64,000 nt of DNA from Escherichia coli (GCF_050320075.1 NZ_CP190018.1), one strand, 5' to 3'. Shown: positions 6,789-41,584, numbered from the stretch's first letter. Notes: generated by a model from the sequence alone, not told the origin. Numbers and translations: made by a program.

Positions 6789-7162
6789 GATTTTTGGCAC
6801 GAGAGTAGTTTAATTGAGCCTGTAACTGTATGATTTTAAAGATGTAGATTAATTGAGTTTTGAAATCGTATATCCAAACGTATAACTAAAATGATTTGCT
6901 GCAAAAATGTACAGCTTTAACCGTTATCATTTTCCGGCTATTCGCTATGAAGCTGGCTGGTGGATAAGCACGGATAACCTGACATCTACAGCCGCCTTAA
7001 AAGCTGAACCCGACAAGCATATCGGCATCATGCCCACCAGCGTGACGCATTTTTTTAATTGCGCGGGCGTAAAAATTTGACGGGGCGGACAGTTCCATAA
7101 GTAATGGATTGCAGGAATTTCGCCCCCCCTCCTGAATGCAATTTTTCGTATATATATACAAA

Positions 7163-7290
7163 ACCACCCGTCCCACCTGTCCCGCCTGTCCCACTGGCAC
7201 CTAACAAATTGATTTTGTTAGAAATAAATTAGGTAAGGTAGGACAAGTCCAGGCTGTTTTGGGACAAGTTGGGGGGGAGGTGGGACAAGT
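7163..7290. repeat. Iteron block 1: three GTCCC units at ~10-bp spacing, 8-bp palindrome CTAACAAA-N5-TTTGTTAG, three GGGACAAGT units at ~21-bp spacing
   Basis: Read directly: TCCCACCTGTCCCGCCTGTCCCA at 7169-7194; palindrome at 7201-7221; G(G)GACAAGT at 7241, 7261, 7282. Confidence 0.6.
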
Positions 7291-7824
7291 CGAGCGAGTG
7301 AATCAAGCCGTGTTAGCGCGGTAAAGCGACAGTGCCGCCGCAATTTTGCGTTGTCGGGAGGCCACCGTAACAGCCACCATACGCGCACAATCTTCGGTGG
7401 TAACGCAATCCAGACGTGCGCAACATCCCCAGATAGGAAATCATTACCTAGCACAGCTAATTGCGCCAGAATCGATTACAGCGCGTTTCTGTGGCATTCA
7501 AGAACGGCTATCACTAGTGTATTGATATGTAATCCGCATATGAGTTTAAGCAACAAAATGATCCCCTTTCGAAAAAGGCACTAACCGTTTTTTCCGAAAT
7601 GATCCGTTGGTGATTTTGTAACTTATTGTTTTGTAGATGTAATTTTAAACTTGATAGGGTTATAAATAGGGGGCGTTTTTGTCAAGAATTGCAAATAATG
7701 CTCGTTTATTGTTCTTTGTTTGTTTGTTTTCTGTTCGTTGATGGGGGATCATTTTGCACTTTTTGGGGGATCATTTCGGAGGGGGGGGGCTGGCAACACG
7801 CCAGCACCCTCGATGCGTTTGTTT

Positions 7825-8034
7825 TTAGCAGTACTCCCAGTCTGTGGCTAGTAGGCTCTCAGGAGATAGCGTAACGCTATCCTCTGTGACGGGATTCAAC
7901 GCAATCAAATCGTTTCCGCGCCGTTCGAGAAAGACGATGTACGGAAGATGCCAGGCACTGCGGCGAGCTGGCACGCGTCGGCCTGGCTGCAACTTGTCGA
8001 GAATATCCACCAGCGAAACGTTCATGTGATTCAA
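7825..8034 (-). CDS. Hypothetical small protein (69 aa with TTG start; 66 aa from internal ATG)
   Basis: ORF with AGGAG about 5 nt upstream of the TTG; last gene of the ssb-finO-perC cluster; no recognisable family. Confidence 0.35.
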   Translation of the reverse strand: MNHMNVSLVDILDKLQPGRRVPARRSAWHLPYIVFLERRGNDLIALNPVTEDSVTLSPESLLATDWEYC

Positions 8035-8090
8035 AAAACTCCTGAAACGCTCTACAACTCAATAACACAAAAAATAATGCAGAACTGCCA

Positions 8091-8375
8091 CTATAAAACC
8101 TTGTCTGTCTGGTAGTTCCGCCAGACAGATTTTGCGATTTCTATCCCCATATCCGCCTGTGTGCGGTGTGCTGCCTCTCTCAAGCTCCCGAAATTATCCA
8201 GCATGACGGGCGAACGTGCTGCCTTGTGGATACATTTCGCGCGACGCTTTACTGCCTGTTCGCGCTCCTTATCGGTGTTCACCTGTTGCATGACCTCAGC
8301 CCATCGGGCCGCCGCTCTCCGGTACAGGCCTTTAGCCTCCAGATCTTCCGCTTTGCTGTCGTGAATCATACTCAT
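8091..8375 (-). CDS. PerC-family transcriptional activator-like protein (94 aa)
   Basis: Motif EDLEAKGLYRRAAARWAEV resembles the PerC family signature; start ATG overlaps stop of upstream gene (ATGA coupling). Confidence 0.5.
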   Translation of the reverse strand: MSMIHDSKAEDLEAKGLYRRAAARWAEVMQQVNTDKEREQAVKRRAKCIHKAARSPVMLDNFGSLREAAHRTQADMGIEIAKSVWRNYQTDKVL

Positions 8376-8908
8376 ACGCCAGCTTGCTCCTTGTTCGACT
8401 TACGTTTGCGCTTCTCTTTCAGTGCCATCAGTCGTGCTTCCGCGTCCTGCTGTTCCTGTTGTGTCACCTCGCCGCATGGCTGGCTATTCAGATCGTAACG
8501 CACGCCACCAGCCATTAAGGCACGGTAATAACGCGGAGAATGAGCATAAGATGCTAGCGCCGCACGTAATGCCCCTGACCCAAAAGCCAGCGCCCTGACG
8601 GCAATATCCTGTATCAGGTCTTCAAATATTCCTACCTTAAGCGGCTTCGGTGATTCCAGGCTGAATAATTCAGGCCATAGTTCAATAAGACGGTTAACGC
8701 GCCTGCGGTTTTTGCCCTGGCGTTTGGTCATATGCCGCCACGGTGTCGCCCCTGTGGGCTTCTGTTTGCGGCTCTGCTGTGCGTTCTGATTGCCGGGTAT
8801 CACTTTATGCGCTGATGTGGTTTTATCCTGCTGCTGTGTCGTCTGTGTCTTTTTCTGTGGTATGCCGTAAATGCCTTTCGGTTTTCTGCTAATAGTCAGT
8901 GTAGTCAT
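8372..8908 (-). CDS. ProQ/FinO-domain RNA-binding protein (178 aa) with basic low-complexity N-terminal extension
   Basis: C-terminal two thirds align by eye with E. coli ProQ N-terminal domain (PLKVGIFEDL..., LRAAL.SY..S.RY...GG.RYDL...PCGE). Confidence 0.6.
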   Translation of the reverse strand: MTTLTISRKPKGIYGIPQKKTQTTQQQDKTTSAHKVIPGNQNAQQSRKQKPTGATPWRHMTKRQGKNRRRVNRLIELWPELFSLESPKPLKVGIFEDLIQDIAVRALAFGSGALRAALASYAHSPRYYRALMAGGVRYDLNSQPCGEVTQQEQQDAEARLMALKEKRKRKSNKEQAGV

Positions 8909-8943
8909 TATTTGTTAACCTCTGTTAGTGAATCCACTGGCAG

Positions 8944-9369
8944 TTAAAATGGTATTTCGTCCTCATACGGGTCATCCTGCTGGCCCGTCTGCTGCTTTGT
9001 TCTGTTCAGTGCGTCAGTAGCCTGCCCTTGCTGTCCTTTCCTGCCTCCTGGTCGCACGGTTCGCGCACTGATTACGCTGCCTGCGATGACCTGCCAGCCC
9101 TGCCGCATTTCCCCGTTCTGGTCTGTCCACTGGCTTATCTGCATGTTACCCGCCACGCTCACCAGTTCGCCTTTCTGGTGTTTTGCCAGTGCATCGGCCT
9201 GTCTGCCAAACGCCAGGACGGATAACCACATCGTCGCTGTTCCGTCATATGCCTGACTGCACGGAAGGGGAACAGCCATACTCACCAGCGCCATTGGTGT
9301 TCCCTTGCTGGTGGTTTTTAACTGCGGGTCAGCCACCAACCGCCCGTAAGCTGATATTTGTGCCGTCAT
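8944..9369 (-). CDS. ssb: Single-stranded DNA-binding protein (SSB-like, 141 aa)
   Basis: OB-fold pattern similar to E. coli SSB (W..V.AFG, WTDQNG) and acidic C-terminal tail EDEIPF (cf. DDDIPF). Confidence 0.6.
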   Translation of the reverse strand: MTAQISAYGRLVADPQLKTTSKGTPMALVSMAVPLPCSQAYDGTATMWLSVLAFGRQADALAKHQKGELVSVAGNMQISQWTDQNGEMRQGWQVIAGSVISARTVRPGGRKGQQGQATDALNRTKQQTGQQDDPYEDEIPF

Positions 9370-9444
9370 ATTGTCTGCTCTCCGGTTTTAAATGTTGGTT
9401 GGATTTTTAATGTCCACCAGCCAGGCAAAAAATAACGCCTGCTG

Positions 9445-9580
9445 ACTTGTCCCAAAATGCTCCTAACTTGTCCCAAAATCACCTTAACTTGTCCCGCTCT
9501 TGTCCCACTTTTTCTGATATTACCCAATATAATTCAGTATGTTATGTGTGTTTCTCACAGGTTGGGACAGGTGGGACAAG
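9445..9580. repeat. Iteron block 2: four ACTTGTCCC units (~21-bp spacing) plus GGGACAGGTGGGACAAG; inverted copy of block 1
   Basis: ACTTGTCCC at 9445, 9466, 9487; TTGTCCC at 9500; GGGACAGGTGGGA at 9564-9576 is the exact reverse complement of TCCCACCTGTCCC in block 1. Confidence 0.6.
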
Positions 9581-9605
9581 AGTCTTTAAACCTACACGCG
9601 AGAGA

Positions 9606-11741
9606 TTAACCACCTTCATCATCATGATCCTGTGCAAGTAAAAGGCCGTACACCCTTAGTCGTGCCCCCTTCATGTGCTTAAGACGTGGTGTTCTGATTT
9701 GCCATCCTTCCCCGCTGGCTGGCTTTTTCAGCATTCCGGCTTCGTGAAGGGCTCTTGCTACGGCATCCTTGTTAAATCCCTTCGCCACATGCGATTTAAA
9801 TGGCTCCGGCAGGACGTAAAACAAAACAGGCTCACCGTAACGCCCCTCGCTTTCCCTGTAGCCGTACAGTTCTGAAATCGGCAGGCTTGCAGGGTCATAA
9901 TTGACAGGCGCAAACCTGCTCATGCCGTAGGCAGTAAGAAATGCCTCTGCCTGTTCAATAATCTGCCTGTGTTCCTTGTTACCCGTGCCGAACTCCTTCA
10001 CCCAGGCATTAAAGTTATGCTGAATGGCATCACAGCACGTCTGAACATTCCAGCCCGTAACATGACCGGACAGCACAAGCGCGGCCTCCAGTATGGCGAA
10101 TCGTTCCCCTACGCGATGAACCTGTTCGCCGTAGCTCTCCGGTATTAGGTTGCGCCACCGTTCACGGCACGCCCTTACCGTGTCCTTAGCCTCCTGCTGG
10201 TGGGCTGCCAGCCATTTAACCCATTCACGACCCGCCGCCCCGTGGTTTTCTGTCCAGGCGGCTTTTAACGCGTCTGCGTGCGCCTTTCCTGTGCTGTATT
10301 CGTGAAACTGCGTAGACTTCTCCATCGGCACGTTAAGCAACCTGACAAGCTGCCCCGCCTTGACTTTTATCCCCTCACTTTTGAGGAATGTTTCAACATC
10401 CATTTCTCCGGTACTGATCGCCACCGTGCGCCAGTGTTTTATCTCCCGGTTGCCGCCGTCCTTCGCCCCCTGTAATTTCCCGGAACCGTTAAACAGCGTA
10501 TAGGCTGACGTGGACACCTCCCGCGCGTTTCCGGCCTGGCCTATTTCATCCAGGGGTAACAGCCCGTCGTTGTGCGCCTCTGCCTCGTTAGCGATACCTA
10601 ACGCTGTGCCGTACCAGGTCAGCCGTTGCGCGTCCGGCTCTCCCCATAAACTTGATGCGATGTTCTGTGTGGTGGTTTTCCCTGCCGATGATTGTTCGAA
10701 AAGATGTACCCCGAAGCCGTCAGCGCCCACCAGCCCGATTAATGGTGCTGATAACGATACCGCCACACCCAGCATCATGGACGGATTACCACCAGCCAGT
10801 CGCGCCACTGTATCGCGCCAGCCCTCTGTCGTTCCTGCTACGGAATAACCATTAACGGCAGCCGTTTTTCCGGTAAACAGGATCGGTTTTTCAGACTCAC
10901 CAATGACTGAACCGTCCGGCATGATGTACGCGCCAAAATGCCACCCCGTTGTTGTGCTTAACTGCCATTCCTCATGGTTTCCGTTTAACTGCATCCAGTC
11001 AGCCAGGATAGCCCTGTATTTGCCGTTGGTTGTCACATTGAGTCCGTGGTCTTTCAGCAGCCGCCAGCCGTCACGGTCGCCAATGCCACCGCACGGGATC
11101 GCCATTGTGATGACTTCATGATTTGCTAATTTTTTCCAGCGCATCACGCGGTAATGCTCTTTACCGATCGTTCCCGTTCCCAGTAGTTCAAGCGGGGAAC
11201 ATAACCACGCCTCAGGCCGGATAATTTCGCCTGACTGTTTGTCAACTTTGGGCGTTACCCAGAAAACACCATCGGCGCGACTTTCAACGCGGGGTTTTAA
11301 TTCATCATCGCCCTGGCTTTCTGTGATTTTTTTCTTTAAGGGCAACACCAGACTTTCCCCGCGCTCGTATTCGTCTTTGAGGCGAGGCAACTGGTCGGAT
11401 AAATCCGCCGGGCTGGTGTCAGTTATCCCCGCATATTCGTATACGGTCTTCACGCCAGCCACAGCCAGCAATGTGACGATCTGTGTAAGGCTACGTTCAG
11501 TGATGTGCCCTGCGCGGTAAACACGCACACACTGACGGCTATCATCAATAATCTGATAACCGGTAATATCTTTCAGGTGTTCATCTGACAGAACGACAGG
11601 CGGCACATTGTCGGCGGCAATATGCTTACCTGCCCATTCCTGCCACTCTTTCGCATGGCTCCACGCATCACTACCCGCAAAAATGATAACCTCCGTCATT
11701 TTGTCGGCTGGCTGGTGCTTTAAGTTCGGTGCGCGTTTCAT
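9606..11741 (-). CDS. Replicative primase-helicase (TOPRIM-like N-terminus plus P-loop NTPase, 711 aa)
   Basis: Walker A-like SSAGKTT, large size, position downstream of int/alpA as in P4 alpha-type and PICI pri-rep genes; start overlaps upstream small ORF. Confidence 0.75.
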   Translation of the reverse strand: MKRAPNLKHQPADKMTEVIIFAGSDAWSHAKEWQEWAGKHIAADNVPPVVLSDEHLKDITGYQIIDDSRQCVRVYRAGHITERSLTQIVTLLAVAGVKTVYEYAGITDTSPADLSDQLPRLKDEYERGESLVLPLKKKITESQGDDELKPRVESRADGVFWVTPKVDKQSGEIIRPEAWLCSPLELLGTGTIGKEHYRVMRWKKLANHEVITMAIPCGGIGDRDGWRLLKDHGLNVTTNGKYRAILADWMQLNGNHEEWQLSTTTGWHFGAYIMPDGSVIGESEKPILFTGKTAAVNGYSVAGTTEGWRDTVARLAGGNPSMMLGVAVSLSAPLIGLVGADGFGVHLFEQSSAGKTTTQNIASSLWGEPDAQRLTWYGTALGIANEAEAHNDGLLPLDEIGQAGNAREVSTSAYTLFNGSGKLQGAKDGGNREIKHWRTVAISTGEMDVETFLKSEGIKVKAGQLVRLLNVPMEKSTQFHEYSTGKAHADALKAAWTENHGAAGREWVKWLAAHQQEAKDTVRACRERWRNLIPESYGEQVHRVGERFAILEAALVLSGHVTGWNVQTCCDAIQHNFNAWVKEFGTGNKEHRQIIEQAEAFLTAYGMSRFAPVNYDPASLPISELYGYRESEGRYGEPVLFYVLPEPFKSHVAKGFNKDAVARALHEAGMLKKPASGEGWQIRTPRLKHMKGARLRVYGLLLAQDHDDEGG

Positions 11742-12025
11742 TTCTTGCCCCCAGTAACCAGCATTTCGCGGATTTTGCGGATATATCTTGCTGCACGGTT
11801 CTGATTTACGGTTTCACGATGATCCACCAGCGTAAAATCACGCTGGAACTGATAAACAGGCATCACGCAGTCATATTCGTATCCTTCACGGCGGTAGGTC
11901 ATGCGTCGTTCACTCACGCCCTTAATCATTACCGTGCTGCCGTATTTATCGCGGTAAATATCGCCGTGCATGAATTCAGGACGAGTTTTACCGCTGGCAG
12001 TAAAGCCAGAATTTTTTGCTTTCAT
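11738..12025 (-). CDS. Hypothetical protein (95 aa), translationally coupled to primase-helicase
   Basis: ORF stop overlaps primase start codon; coding-like composition; no family recognised. Confidence 0.45.
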   Translation of the reverse strand: MKAKNSGFTASGKTRPEFMHGDIYRDKYGSTVMIKGVSERRMTYRREGYEYDCVMPVYQFQRDFTLVDHRETVNQNRAARYIRKIREMLVTGGKK

Positions 12026-12064
12026 TTATCGAATTACGTTTTTGTTAAAGCTGTATTAATGAGA

Positions 12065-12250
12065 TTAATGAACTGTCGCCACTTCAATTACGGCACGGAT
12101 CATCACCTGCGTGAACCCACAGCCGATTAACTCTTCTTTCAATATTGCGATAGCTGCATTAACGCTGGTGGCGTTCACGTTTTGCTGATTATCAATAACG
12201 TGGCCTTGATGATTTACAGCGCGTGCGGTTATCTGAAATCGCTTAAGCAT
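12065..12250 (-). CDS. Hypothetical small protein (61 aa)
   Basis: ORF preceded by GGGGTGAGG SD-like sequence; start overlaps stop of upstream small ORF. Confidence 0.4.
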   Translation of the reverse strand: MLKRFQITARAVNHQGHVIDNQQNVNATSVNAAIAILKEELIGCGFTQVMIRAVIEVATVH

Positions 12251-12431
12251 GCCTCACCCCCTGACGAATACGGGCAGCGAATACAGCAACACAGCCGGAC
12301 GGGCAACAGTTACGCGCTTCTCGTTCGGTTGATGCCTCGACGTGAACAATACGGGAATCAGTCGGATTAAAGATGACAAAGCGCCAGATAAATGTGTTTT
12401 GAGAATGTTCGAGGGTAGGGGTAGTAGCCAT
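12243..12431 (-). CDS. Small protein (62 aa), possibly Icd-like (host cell division inhibitor-like) as annotated in P4-like elements
   Basis: Strong SD AGGAGG 7 nt upstream of ATG; FIWRF and FAAR motifs recalled from Icd-like annotations (memory-based, uncertain). Confidence 0.45.
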   Translation of the reverse strand: MATTPTLEHSQNTFIWRFVIFNPTDSRIVHVEASTEREARNCCPSGCVAVFAARIRQGVRHA

Positions 12432-12640
12432 TTGGCAGCCTCCTGTAACGTTGGGATATACCCACCGCCGGAGGTGGTAAGCTCGATGGCGGTGGACTGT
12501 ACAGGGTTACCACAACTGGTGTTACAGGAAACCAGCCTGACCGAAGTCAGCCCCATACAGCCCACCATTGATAAGGCGTGCGCGTGCGCCGATACAAAAA
12601 AAGACGCCTGGCGCGTCTGTATCGCCTGTAACTCCAGCGG
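12432..12640 (-). ncRNA. Candidate structured regulatory RNA / leader (P4 immunity-like seqA-seqB-seqC arrangement)
   Basis: On the minus strand: GTTACAGG (12632-12625), intrinsic terminator, UUCG-tetraloop hairpin (12550-12537), complementary CCTGTAAC (12528-12521), then GTTACAGGAGG (12449-12439) overlapping the SD of the first ORF. Confidence 0.3.
12595..12618 (-). terminator. Intrinsic terminator inside the leader region (AGACGC-loop-GCGTCT followed by T7 on minus strand)
   Basis: 6-bp GC-rich stem, 5-nt loop, run of seven T on the transcribed strand. Confidence 0.5.
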
Positions 12641-13077
12641 GGTGGTAATCCCGACACCCGTTTTATGAGGTGCGCAGGGAGTATATCCCGTTTTCTTGCT
12701 CATGTGGTCGGATGTGTTGAAGGTGTGCCCACCACACAAATCACATTGCTCACCAGCCGGAAATATGGCATTGTTGGCGATGCATTCAAGTTTAATATAT
12801 GCCTTCTGGCGACCCTCTGCGGTCGCCTTTGTTTTATTCGTAAGCAACATATTTCTTTTGTCGTTTAAGCTATGCGATTGTACGTTTCCGTTTAAAACGG
12901 AAGTGCTATTAGTTCAATTAATTCGTTCGTACGGTTTGAACTGAATAATAACATCAGCCATAATTTTTTATGGTTGAACGAAAACCTGCCCCTGTTTGGG
13001 CATTTTTGCCAGTATTCATAATGTTCTCTCTTAATTGTTTTGTTGCTTGATAGTAATCAGGCCAGCGTTAATCACAC

Positions 13078-13269
13078 TTATGCTTCACGAGTTTCTCTCT
13101 CACGTTCTTTCAACCAGGCGAGTACCTCATCTTCATACCAGCCAATGCGACGCAGCCCGATACGGAATCCTTTGGGGAACCCGCCTTTGTTAACCATCTC
13201 CGTTAGGGTCGAATCAGATTTAATGCGTAGCAAGGCCTTTACCTCTGGTCGTAAAAGAATAGCCCTCAT
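13078..13269 (-). CDS. alpA: AlpA-family phage transcriptional regulator / excisionase-like (63 aa)
   Basis: Small HTH protein with LLR..EV......S.ST......G.FP....IG.R.IGW...EV..WL pattern; position between integrase and replication genes. Confidence 0.7.
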   Translation of the reverse strand: MRAILLRPEVKALLRIKSDSTLTEMVNKGGFPKGFRIGLRRIGWYEDEVLAWLKERERETREA

Positions 13270-13474
13270 CCTATTTCTCCTCTGGACAGCAAAATATCGC
13301 TTTTTGAATGAAAATAACGGTAAGTAATGTAATAAGCATACAAATCTATAAAAAAGACAGTCAAGAATTATTTAATAAGAGCTATGTGATTGGTTATTTT
13401 TTAATTTTCTAACATAAAAAGAATTTAAATGTTTCTCAAAATGAGACAGTATTGAGAAAGTAATGAGACACAAA

Positions 13475-13506
13475 TTAGCTCCTAACTGATACCAATTAGG
13501 AGCTAA
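13475..13506. promoter_or_regulatory. Perfect 11-bp inverted repeat TTAGCTCCTAA-N10-TTAGGAGCTAA in the AT-rich int-alpA intergenic region
   Basis: Read directly; lies just downstream of int stop and upstream of alpA promoter region; could be int terminator and/or operator. Confidence 0.35.
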
Positions 13507-13522
13507 TAATTTTTTAAATATT

Positions 13523-14767
13523 TTATTTTATTCCGCGTAATCCTCTGTGCCCGCTGGCGATGGTTGTTCCGGTTGCGGCTGCTTCCACAAAATCACCCCA
13601 CCAGCACATTAACACTTTACGTTTTTCCAGGTAGTTGCTTCGGTTGTATGCCCGTCTAACTTCGTTTGTGTCCACGTGGGCTAGTGCGGCTTCGATCACG
13701 TCAGGTTCAAATCCTTCTTCATTCGCCGCCGTGCTGAATATTGCGCGTAGTCCGTGAGATACCAGCACACCAGCGTAACCCATTCGTCGTAATGCTGCGT
13801 TTGCTGTCTGGCTGCTCATTGATTGCACTGGATTTTTAAGACTTGGGAAAACATGCTCCCTTCGTGCGCTAATCGGCTTCATGGCTTCAAGCACTGCCAT
13901 CGCCTGAGCGCAAAGGGGGATCACATGATCACGGCGCATCTTCATGCGTCCGGCTGGTATCGTCCAGGTTGCCGCCTCAAGGTTGATTTCTTCCCACCGT
14001 GCGGCGGAGGCTTCGGCTGGGCGGGTTGCGGTTAACAACTGCCACTCAATCAGCAATCTGGTTTGCCGTTCTATGCTGGCGATCGATAAATCGTGCATTA
14101 GCTGCGGTAGTTGTTCCGGTCGGATGGTTGGCATGTGCTTTTTGGTGGGGGAAGGGAATGCCTTGCGAACGTTCGCGGCGGTGTTGATGTCAATCAGTCC
14201 ACTGTTGGCAGCAAAATCCATCACTTCATTGATGCGCTGTAAAACGCGTTTCAGTGTTTCCAGGTTGCCACGTGCCTTGATGGGCGTGAGTATCTCAACA
14301 AAGCGGCGAGCGGTGAGAGTATCTATCGGTGTGTTTCCGATATACGGGAATACATATTTCTCTAGCGAGCGCCAGATGTCCTTGATCGTATTGTGGGCGA
14401 GATTCTGGTTTTTTTTCATTTCGTACCACAATGCGGCCACATTTTCGAACGTGTTGCCCTGTCGTCGAGCCTCTGCTTCGAGTTTTTGCCGTTCGTATTC
14501 CTGCGGGTCGGTTCCTGCCGCAATTAACGTCCTGTACTCGCTACGGCGTTTTCTGGCATCAGCCAGGGAGACTTCATCAAGCGAGCCCAAACTAATGATT
14601 GTTCGTTTTTTGTTCGATGGTCGATAGTAGTTGAATCGCCATAGTTTCGAACCAGACGGCTTAATAACGAGAAAAAGCCCGCCGCCATCCTGTAAGGTGT
14701 ATTCTTTTTCCGCTGGTTTAGCTGCTTTGATCTGTGTGGTGGTGAGTGGGGTCGCCTTTCTTGCCAT
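13523..14767 (-). CDS. int: Tyrosine site-specific integrase, P4-type (414 aa)
   Basis: N-terminal arm-binding-like domain (LTTTQIKAAKP...GGGLFLVIKPSGSKLWRF), C-terminal catalytic region with HGLRA and terminal tyrosine region; adjacent to tRNA gene. Confidence 0.85.
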   Translation of the reverse strand: MARKATPLTTTQIKAAKPAEKEYTLQDGGGLFLVIKPSGSKLWRFNYYRPSNKKRTIISLGSLDEVSLADARKRRSEYRTLIAAGTDPQEYERQKLEAEARRQGNTFENVAALWYEMKKNQNLAHNTIKDIWRSLEKYVFPYIGNTPIDTLTARRFVEILTPIKARGNLETLKRVLQRINEVMDFAANSGLIDINTAANVRKAFPSPTKKHMPTIRPEQLPQLMHDLSIASIERQTRLLIEWQLLTATRPAEASAARWEEINLEAATWTIPAGRMKMRRDHVIPLCAQAMAVLEAMKPISARREHVFPSLKNPVQSMSSQTANAALRRMGYAGVLVSHGLRAIFSTAANEEGFEPDVIEAALAHVDTNEVRRAYNRSNYLEKRKVLMCWWGDFVEAAATGTTIASGHRGLRGIK

Positions 14768-14973
14768 ACGTTTATGAATCCACGGGAAAAAACAGGTTCT
14801 AGTTATACGGATTTAGCTATGCGCCAGCCCGTATAACTAAACATATAACTAAAAAAAACGGCTGAAAACCACTGTTACCGTCGAATAACGATGACTAAAA
14901 ACAATAAAAAAACCCGCTATTCAATGAATTAGCGGGCTTATTTCATAAAAACGATAATTAATAATGGGCGATT

Positions 14974-15050
14974 TGGTCGGCACGAGAGGATTTGAACCTC
15001 CGACCCCCGACACCCCATGACGGTGCGCTACCAGGCTGCGCTACGTGCCG
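14974..15050 (-). tRNA. proL: tRNA-Pro (anticodon GGG), 77 nt with encoded CCA
   Basis: Reverse complement reads CGGCACGTAGCGCAGCCTGGTAGCGCACCGTCATGGGGTGTCGGGGGTCGGAGGTTCAAATCCTCTCGTGCCGACCA; cloverleaf with GGG in anticodon loop. Confidence 0.9.
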
Positions 15051-18459: not shown

Positions 18460-18852
<393 letters not shown>

Positions 18853-41543: not shown

Positions 41544-41554
41544 TAAAAGGTGTG

Positions 41555-41584
41555 TTACAGGGCAGAAATTTCCTGCCCTGTAAC
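41555..41584 (+). terminator. Stem-loop downstream of fruA (12-bp perfect stem GTTACAGGGCAG...CTGCCCTGTAAC)
   Basis: Read directly; a second hairpin GGGCAGA..TCTGCCC plus T6 follows at about 41701-41727. Confidence 0.6.

Follow-up and report, generated by a model that had tools for sequence, protein, structure and literature searches.

What is encoded between the alpA gene and the first small ORF of the primase operon in an Escherichia coli island, and how might that stretch govern the replication genes that follow it? The interval is crossed by a 198-aa ORF and could on that basis be taken for a protein gene, yet an earlier note on this DNA regarded positions 12850-12432 as RNA-encoding, with an arrangement like that of seqA, seqB and seqC in the immunity region of phage P4. 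The interval was therefore examined within the window, the 64,000-nucleotide stretch of DNA that was analysed as a whole; all coordinates of the leader are given in window numbering and refer to the minus strand. The homology, fold, complementarity, covariation and gene order described below are those of a P4-type IsrK/C4 antisense-RNA immunity module, which the region very probably is.

Genetic context of the leader

The island extends from approximately 6795 to 15050 (∼8.2 kb) and is situated at the tRNA-Pro(GGG) gene (14974-15050), between yejO and yejM. A tyrosine integrase gene adjoins the tRNA gene, whereas the far edge of the island is marked only by 10 nt that repeat the 3' end of the tRNA (CTCTCGTGCC, 6805-6796). 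Two further E. coli strains, OSUCMP42NDM and ECamp52, carry the island with 100% and 99.8% identity, respectively. Its genes encode a DUF927 replicase, a single-stranded DNA-binding protein (SSB), a ProQ/FinO-domain protein (8372-8908) and a PerC-like protein; no capsid, packaging or P4 hijacking genes were found in the island. Immediately upstream of the leader is an AlpA/Vis-type gene (13269-13078), the product of which is 39% identical to P4 Vis, and int, alpA, the first gene of the operon and the primase gene are all intact in the window. Separately, tandem 21-nt direct repeats (CTGCTGACTTGTCCCAAAATG), which are 86% identical to each other, are present at 9439-9480, and a related GGTGGGACAAG motif occurs on either side (7273-7289 and 9564-9580) of the gap that separates the SSB gene from the primase-helicase gene. 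These repeats may represent iterons or an origin of the island.

The first gene downstream of the leader (12431-12243) encodes a small protein of 62 aa, named in RefSeq as a host cell division inhibitor Icd-like protein. The protein scores 59.6 bits against the NCBIfam model NF033153 (Icd-like; cut-off 25), and P4 Kil scores 73.1 bits against the same model. BLASTP comparison of this ORF (ORF62) with P4 Kil returned no match, the kinship being visible only via the NCBIfam profile. ORF61, a gene for a DUF4222 protein and the DUF927 primase-helicase gene follow at 12250-9606, tightly packed or overlapping, and from this spacing only it is inferred that they are co-transcribed with the Icd-like gene. 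A C-rich, G-poor stretch lies just after the start codon of the latter (12420-12361), with a C/G ratio of up to 3.3.

Identity of the RNAs encoded by the leader

A scan of the whole window against the Rfam covariance models at gathering thresholds gave four matches, two of which fall within the leader. The first, to isrK (RF01394), spans 12673-12597 with a score of 61.6 bits (gathering score 50, E 9e-11) and covers model positions 1-77 of 77. The second, to the C4 antisense RNA (RF01695), spans 12572-12485 with a score of 78.7 bits (gathering score 45, E 1e-13), covers model positions 1-87 of 87 and has no non-canonical pairs. Folded alone, the C4 segment has a minimum free energy of −40.9 kcal/mol (z-score −4.1 against shuffled sequences) and adopts the shape of the Rfam consensus, made up of a UUCG hairpin, a further hairpin whose loop has 12 nt, and a long outer stem. 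Two of the checks suggested in the earlier note, RNA folding and an Rfam search, came out on the side of an RNA-encoding leader. Outside the leader, the ribosomal-protein L25 leader at 18766-18791 (minus strand) also scored above its Rfam gathering threshold (46.9 versus 34.1 bits); this is an ordinary chromosomal feature.

Inspection of the sequence located each of the motifs listed in the earlier note on the minus strand, at the positions given there, and the Rfam matches show how they belong together. The upstream copy of GTTACAGG (12632-12625), previously designated seqA and here termed target box b1 (GUUACAGG), is followed by an intrinsic terminator at 12618-12595, composed of an AGACGC/GCGTCT stem with a GCCAG loop (12618-12602) and a run of seven T residues (12601-12595), with which the result of a terminator scan agrees. 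Since the isrK match is full length, this box and the terminator are parts of one isrK-type leader RNA, corresponding to the seqA region of P4, in which two hairpins and two target boxes precede the terminator; the latter forms the 3' hairpin of the model and is the counterpart of P4 t1. The CUGAC-UUCG-GUCAG hairpin (12550-12537) and the complementary motif CCTGTAAC (12528-12521) are also present as described, but not as the separate elements that they had been taken for: the full-length match to C4 places them in one 88-nt RNA, of which the former is hairpin 1 and the latter the loop of hairpin 2. The second GTTACAGG (12449-12442) merges into the AGGAGG Shine-Dalgarno sequence (12444-12439) of the Icd-like gene, the ATG of which is at 12431. 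The proposed extent of the RNA-encoding span is upheld in part, in that approximately 12685-12432 holds RNA elements, whereas 12850-12686 has no recognised RNA and corresponds solely to the 5' portion of the 198-aa ORF.

The outer stem of the C4 RNA resembles an acceptor stem and is followed by GCCA, which is suggestive of processing to an RNA of ∼77-80 nt with a 5' end generated by RNase P. RNase P is the enzyme that releases the C4-type RNA in P1 and P4.

A TATACT hexamer (12685-12680), located 6 nt upstream of the start of the isrK model, aligns with a TATA(G/C)T block that is conserved in 35 loci, including the TATAGT of P4, and is the putative −10 element of a leader promoter equivalent to P4 PLE. 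The match in the −35 region is poor (three of six positions; ACCACA, 12708-12703) and the promoter was not listed by a consensus promoter scan, for which reasons constitutive transcription of the kind that proceeds from PLE is uncertain. Several inverted repeats or hairpins are present between alpA and this promoter (12721-12735, 12808-12827, 12883-12905 and 12987-13002), among them GTGTG-GTGGG-CACAC just upstream of the weak −35, and these might serve an upstream (PLL-like) transcript as operators or terminators.

Complementarity between C4 and its flanking boxes

The loop of C4 hairpin 2 presents box b' (CCUGUAAC, 12528-12521), equivalent to seqB, which is complementary to b1 and to the downstream target box b2 (GUUACAGGAGGC, 12449-12438), equivalent to seqC and inclusive of the Shine-Dalgarno sequence. 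A second pair of complementary boxes, absent from the earlier note, comprises GUGGUAA in a single-stranded joint of C4 (box a', 12513-12507) and UUACCAC on either side of it. The upstream UUACCAC (a1, 12648-12642) occupies the loop of isrK hairpin 2, 9 nt before b1, and the downstream one (a2, 12480-12474) begins ∼5 nt past the end of C4. Thus, both the loop and the joint of the C4 RNA are complementary to boxes that flank it on the same transcript. Pairing between b2 and the C4 loop forms a contiguous run of 11-12 pairs, with G-U pairs counted, that covers the entire Shine-Dalgarno sequence, and the predicted duplex has an energy of −18.7 kcal/mol.

In order to establish whether these pairings are maintained in other elements, a degenerate motif describing the conserved scaffold of C4 was used, which identified 99 viral contigs with 45 distinct C4 sequences and 35 combinations of boxes. 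One representative of each specificity type (n = 35) was entered in the covariation alignment. The length of the longest run of pairs at any place in the flanks (G-U pairs included) discriminated only weakly between cognate and non-cognate combinations, and this measure was replaced by counts of pairs at defined positions. Between the C4 boxes and the downstream boxes, 94.2% of cells formed standard pairs, with 169 compensatory cells across the 35 types; for the percentage of pairs, the number of compensatory cells and the covariation score alike, values as high as those observed were obtained in 0 of 500 column shuffles; when the partner was slid by 1-3 columns, pairing fell to 35-51%. The upstream boxes behaved similarly, with 96.8% paired, 164 compensatory cells, no shuffle of 500 as high, and 37-52% paired in the slid controls. 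Considered individually, a1 is 99.6% paired with compensatory changes at six of seven pairs, b1 is 94.3% paired with such changes at seven of eight, and a2 is 100% paired with changes at six of seven. A lack of covariation or conservation of the motifs in homologues had been named as a finding that would speak against the RNA reading; the opposite was found, both in the 35 types and in the triple switches in close relatives described below.

One viral contig (L013) departs from the pattern, in that its b1 (TCTAACGG; alignment A2 columns 152-159) mismatches both its own C4 loop (CCTGTGAA) and its b2 (TTCACAGG) and instead matches the specificity of L031. Its leader has the appearance of a recombinant in which seqA is of heterologous origin.

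The GTTACAGG motif occurs 10 times in the window against an expectation of 1.28, and the identification of the three copies at the locus derives from homology rather than from this excess. The extra sites (4455, 6819, 41554, 41577, 43601, 53486 and 62741) were considered as further targets of C4 and rejected, none of the seven having an adjacent UUACCAC. Those at 41554 and 41577 are the arms of an unrelated inverted repeat (41554-41584, GTTACAGGGCAG...CTGCCCTGTAAC) with the appearance of a terminator acting in both directions, one is intergenic and located where the island ends on its far side, and four lack a hairpin or a-box context.

Specificity switching in close relatives

Five E. coli islands (L104-L108) that are 90-97% identical to the window were aligned to positions 12420-12700. 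The window and L104 share the b1/b'/b2 set GTTACAGG / CCTGTAAC / GTTACAGG, whereas L105 and L106 have GTTAACGG / CCGTTAAC / GTTAACGG, the counterpart of the window's b' CCUGUAAC in the L105 type being CCGUUAAC, and L107 and L108 have GCAAAAGG / CCTTTTGC / GCAAAAGG. L108 alone has also switched its a-boxes, to TTGCTAC / GTAGCAA / TTGCTAC. There are thus at least four immunity specificities among window-like islands, with all three copies of a box changed together. When duplex energies were predicted for every combination in a 6 × 6 cross-test, the cognate pair was best in every row and every column; for the window, cognate duplexes have energies of −27.6 (downstream) and −23.6 (upstream), compared with −11.8 to −23.1 for the non-cognate pairs that involve it. 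As a separate observation, L107 and L108 contain compensating +1/−1 indels within the terminator, by which the frame of 198 codons is kept.

Relationship to the modules of P4, P1 and lambdoid phages

The P4/P1 type of immunity has been known since the 1990s. In P4, immunity entails CI-dependent premature termination at t1, t4 and the Rho-dependent timm. Pairing of CI at seqA reportedly raises termination at t1 and so autoregulates CI, a finding attributed to Briani and colleagues in 2000.

The earlier comparison with P4 was supported. The P4 genome (NC_001609) carries the same pair of Rfam families in the same order before kil, with scores close to those in the window, isrK being at 8692-8615 (60.8 bits) and C4 at 8507-8420, and the succession of promoter, seqA, t1, cI (seqB), seqC, first gene and replication genes is reproduced in the window, with a putative leader promoter at its head. 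As in the window, the P4 seqC (ATTCACAGGAGG) is fused to the AGGAGG Shine-Dalgarno sequence of an Icd/Kil-like first gene, complementarity is in two parts (GUGAGAA...AUUCACAGG versus UUCUCAC plus CCUGUGAA, with the UUCUCAC box on both sides), an intrinsic terminator directly follows seqA, and a vis/alpA-type gene and a tyrosine integrase gene are upstream with replication genes downstream. The two differ in the spacer between terminator and C4 (∼24 nt in the window, ∼110 nt in P4), in the upstream promoter regions, which are unrelated, and in the genes controlled, these being the DUF927 replicase set in the window and epsilon/alpha in P4. They differ also in the leader ORF: eta of P4 (199 aa) begins upstream of the promoter and is nested in frame with kil, whereas the leader ORF of the window and the first gene lie in different frames owing to a spacing between Shine-Dalgarno sequence and ATG that is 1 nt shorter. 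Judged from the box sequences, which appear to set immunity specificity and which differ between the two, the specificity of the window would differ from that of P4.

Of all the P4 proteins used as tblastn queries against the window, Int (E 5e-75) and Vis (E 9e-7) alone gave a match, and alpha, epsilon, sid, delta and psu gave none. With only Int and Vis/AlpA shared, the module is of P4 type but the island is not a P4-like satellite, and its regulatory logic may differ from that of P4.

The immI region of P1 and P7 (c4-icd-ant) resembles the module proposed for the window in that the C4 RNA is cut from the transcript of its own target, two boxes are repeated on both sides of it, and the ribosome-binding site of icd lies within the downstream box, such that a block to icd translation shuts off the distal genes. 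P1-like phages contain the C4-icd pair, and a P1-like phage matches the window with 77% identity. However, P1/P7 has an antirepressor gene after icd, in the place of which the window has replication genes, and the P1-like locus examined gave no match to the isrK model. The same isrK-C4 tandem is found in Stx-converting lambdoid phages and in Salmonella Gifsy-1 (IsrK/STnc1160), with 82-84% nucleotide identity over 12673-12412; there, the module precedes Rha/Ant-type regulators rather than a replicase. Some records of Stx phages annotate both RNAs as ncRNAs, and no ncRNA is annotated over the leader in the examined records of the present island family.

In the literature, the seqA leader has already been identified as IsrK and the CI RNA as C4 (PMC3632133; PMC4825925), and a processed stable RNA has been described downstream of IsrK in Gifsy-1 (PMC4825925). 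Profiles for C4 and isrK also match phage-inducible chromosomal islands (PICIs) of Gram-negative bacteria (PMC10111431).

Proposed control of the replication operon

RNA processing, termination and the effect on replication are inferred by analogy with P4 and P1, and would proceed as follows. The leader promoter near 12685 would transcribe the minus strand from a start near 12673, and a part of the transcripts would end at the terminator after the first 77 nt, the isrK-type leader, in which the a1 and b1 boxes stand in front of that terminator. Read-through RNA would hold the 88-nt C4/CI-type RNA, which would be cut from the same transcript. Pairing of its loop CCUGUAAC and its joint GUGGUAA with b1 and a1 would favour a stop at the first terminator, so that synthesis of C4 would be self-limited; pairing of the same segments with b2 and a2 would mask the ribosome-binding site of the Icd/Kil-like gene. 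Left untranslated, the first gene would be subject to an early end of transcription, probably through the action of Rho on its C-rich start, and termination before ORF61, the DUF4222 gene and the DUF927 primase-helicase gene would keep the operon off while the island is integrated.

One feature is not accounted for by a simple antisense model. Positions 12496-12488, which form the 3' arm of the outer stem of C4, can alternatively pair with the segment GGCGGUGGG (12466-12458), a downstream copy of the 5' arm of that stem, and this pairing would place a2 in a hairpin loop. This helix and the outer stem are mutually exclusive; in the 35 types, 94.6% of its cells are paired and 54 are compensatory, compared with 25-57% paired in the slid controls. 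The helix may be the counterpart of the atypical terminator t4 of P4, or a maturation switch. Taken further, it could constitute a conserved switch that directs the nascent transcript either to free C4 or to repressible mRNA, with the ProQ/FinO chaperone of the island perhaps assisting the pairing, by analogy with FinO in the FinP/traJ system; this is a speculative proposal, and rather improbable as a whole. A ProQ/FinO gene accompanies the module in none of the 99 viral loci, indicating that this gene is specific to the present island family.

The sign of control might feasibly be reversed. In Gifsy-1, the IsrK sRNA makes the long isrK-orf45-anrP transcript translationally active (PMC4825925), and the isrK match of 61.6 bits raises the prospect that the short RNA of the island similarly acts in trans on the read-through RNA, opening the ribosome-binding site and switching the operon on, or that it does so by titration of C4, for which it carries both of the recognised boxes. 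The boxes of the short RNA are, however, identical rather than complementary to those at the ribosome-binding site, and direct pairing through them is thereby precluded; moreover, P4 genetics identified seqA as a target of CI (PMC4825925; PMC3632133). Positive control in this form is considered unlikely, although it is compatible with the antisense model as a layer of feedback upon it, and not as its replacement.

It might also be argued that the leader is a decayed remnant in a cryptic island, conserved by recent descent only and with no current function. The poor −35 region, the absence of packaging and capsid genes from the island and an internal stop codon in the primase gene of one relative are in keeping with such decay. 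Against this, all three copies of each box are perfectly matched in the window and in relatives with switched specificity, a situation that requires ongoing selection on pairing, and the int, alpA, Icd-like and primase genes of the window have remained intact. Decay is accordingly regarded as quite unlikely.

The 198-aa ORF and its annotation

The ORF of 198 aa (12850-12254) runs across the putative promoter, isrK, C4 and b2, out of frame with the Icd-like gene. RefSeq annotates 12850-12482 (L001, 4451-4819) as a pseudogene of an 'ash family protein', and residues 56-143 match Pfam Phage_ASH (PF10554) with an E value of 7e-8. The residues concerned are encoded by nucleotides 12685-12422, which correspond exactly to isrK, C4 and b2, and BLASTP similarity to P4 eta/ORF199 (8812-8168) is limited to residues 87-139, the translated C4 gene; a search of NCBIfam gave no match to the ORF.

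Upstream of the RNA elements the ORF has 55 codons, and the pattern of substitution in these was examined by comparison with five relatives. Substitutions are distributed in a ratio of approximately 6:5:5 over the three codon positions, with non-synonymous changes exceeding synonymous ones by 2-3 to 1. In alpA, used as a control, synonymous and third-position changes predominated, as expected, in L104 and L108; in the remaining three relatives, where substitutions are few, the counts were approximately equal. The frame is open for exactly 198 codons in six islands, among which 157 of the 1108 columns aligned over a 1.1-kb region vary. When the same substitutions were placed at random, the frame stayed open in 14-62% of trials (P 0.14-0.62 per relative), such that its openness is not significant and selection to keep it open was not detected. 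The equivalent frame of P4-type elements is open and in phase with kil; in lambdoid and P1-like elements that carry these RNAs it closes 39-90 nt ahead of C4.

The earlier note had held that this frame is not an ordinary protein gene and that it lacks a ribosome-binding site; the neutral pattern of substitution and the confinement of similarity to the RNA genes bear out the former view, and no Shine-Dalgarno sequence precedes its ATG. That the ORF encodes a genuine Ash family protein, to which the RNA matches would be secondary, is highly unlikely given a neutral pattern in place of the selection as a protein that family membership implies, even though the Pfam match, the RefSeq name, the 198 open codons in six islands and the equivalent frame (eta) kept by P4-like elements could be cited in its favour. 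By analogy with P4, the ORF may instead be an eta-like translated leader; translation of eta from an upstream promoter was reportedly described by Forti and colleagues in 1999. The Phage_ASH family itself probably represents an in silico translation of RNA genes that are conserved, or of the eta leader ORF of P4, and the RefSeq pseudogene drawn over the RNA genes of the island is an annotation artefact.

Implications for the island family

The IsrK-C4 system of P4, both of the Rfam families and their presence in Gram-negative PICIs were known previously. What is new here is that the module has its own specificity and is part of an island that is not P4-like. The presence of the cassette on a non-P4 replicon, with a DUF927 primase-helicase, underlines its modularity, and the concerted three-site switches in close relatives provide a clean natural example of diversification of specificity in RNA-based immunity.
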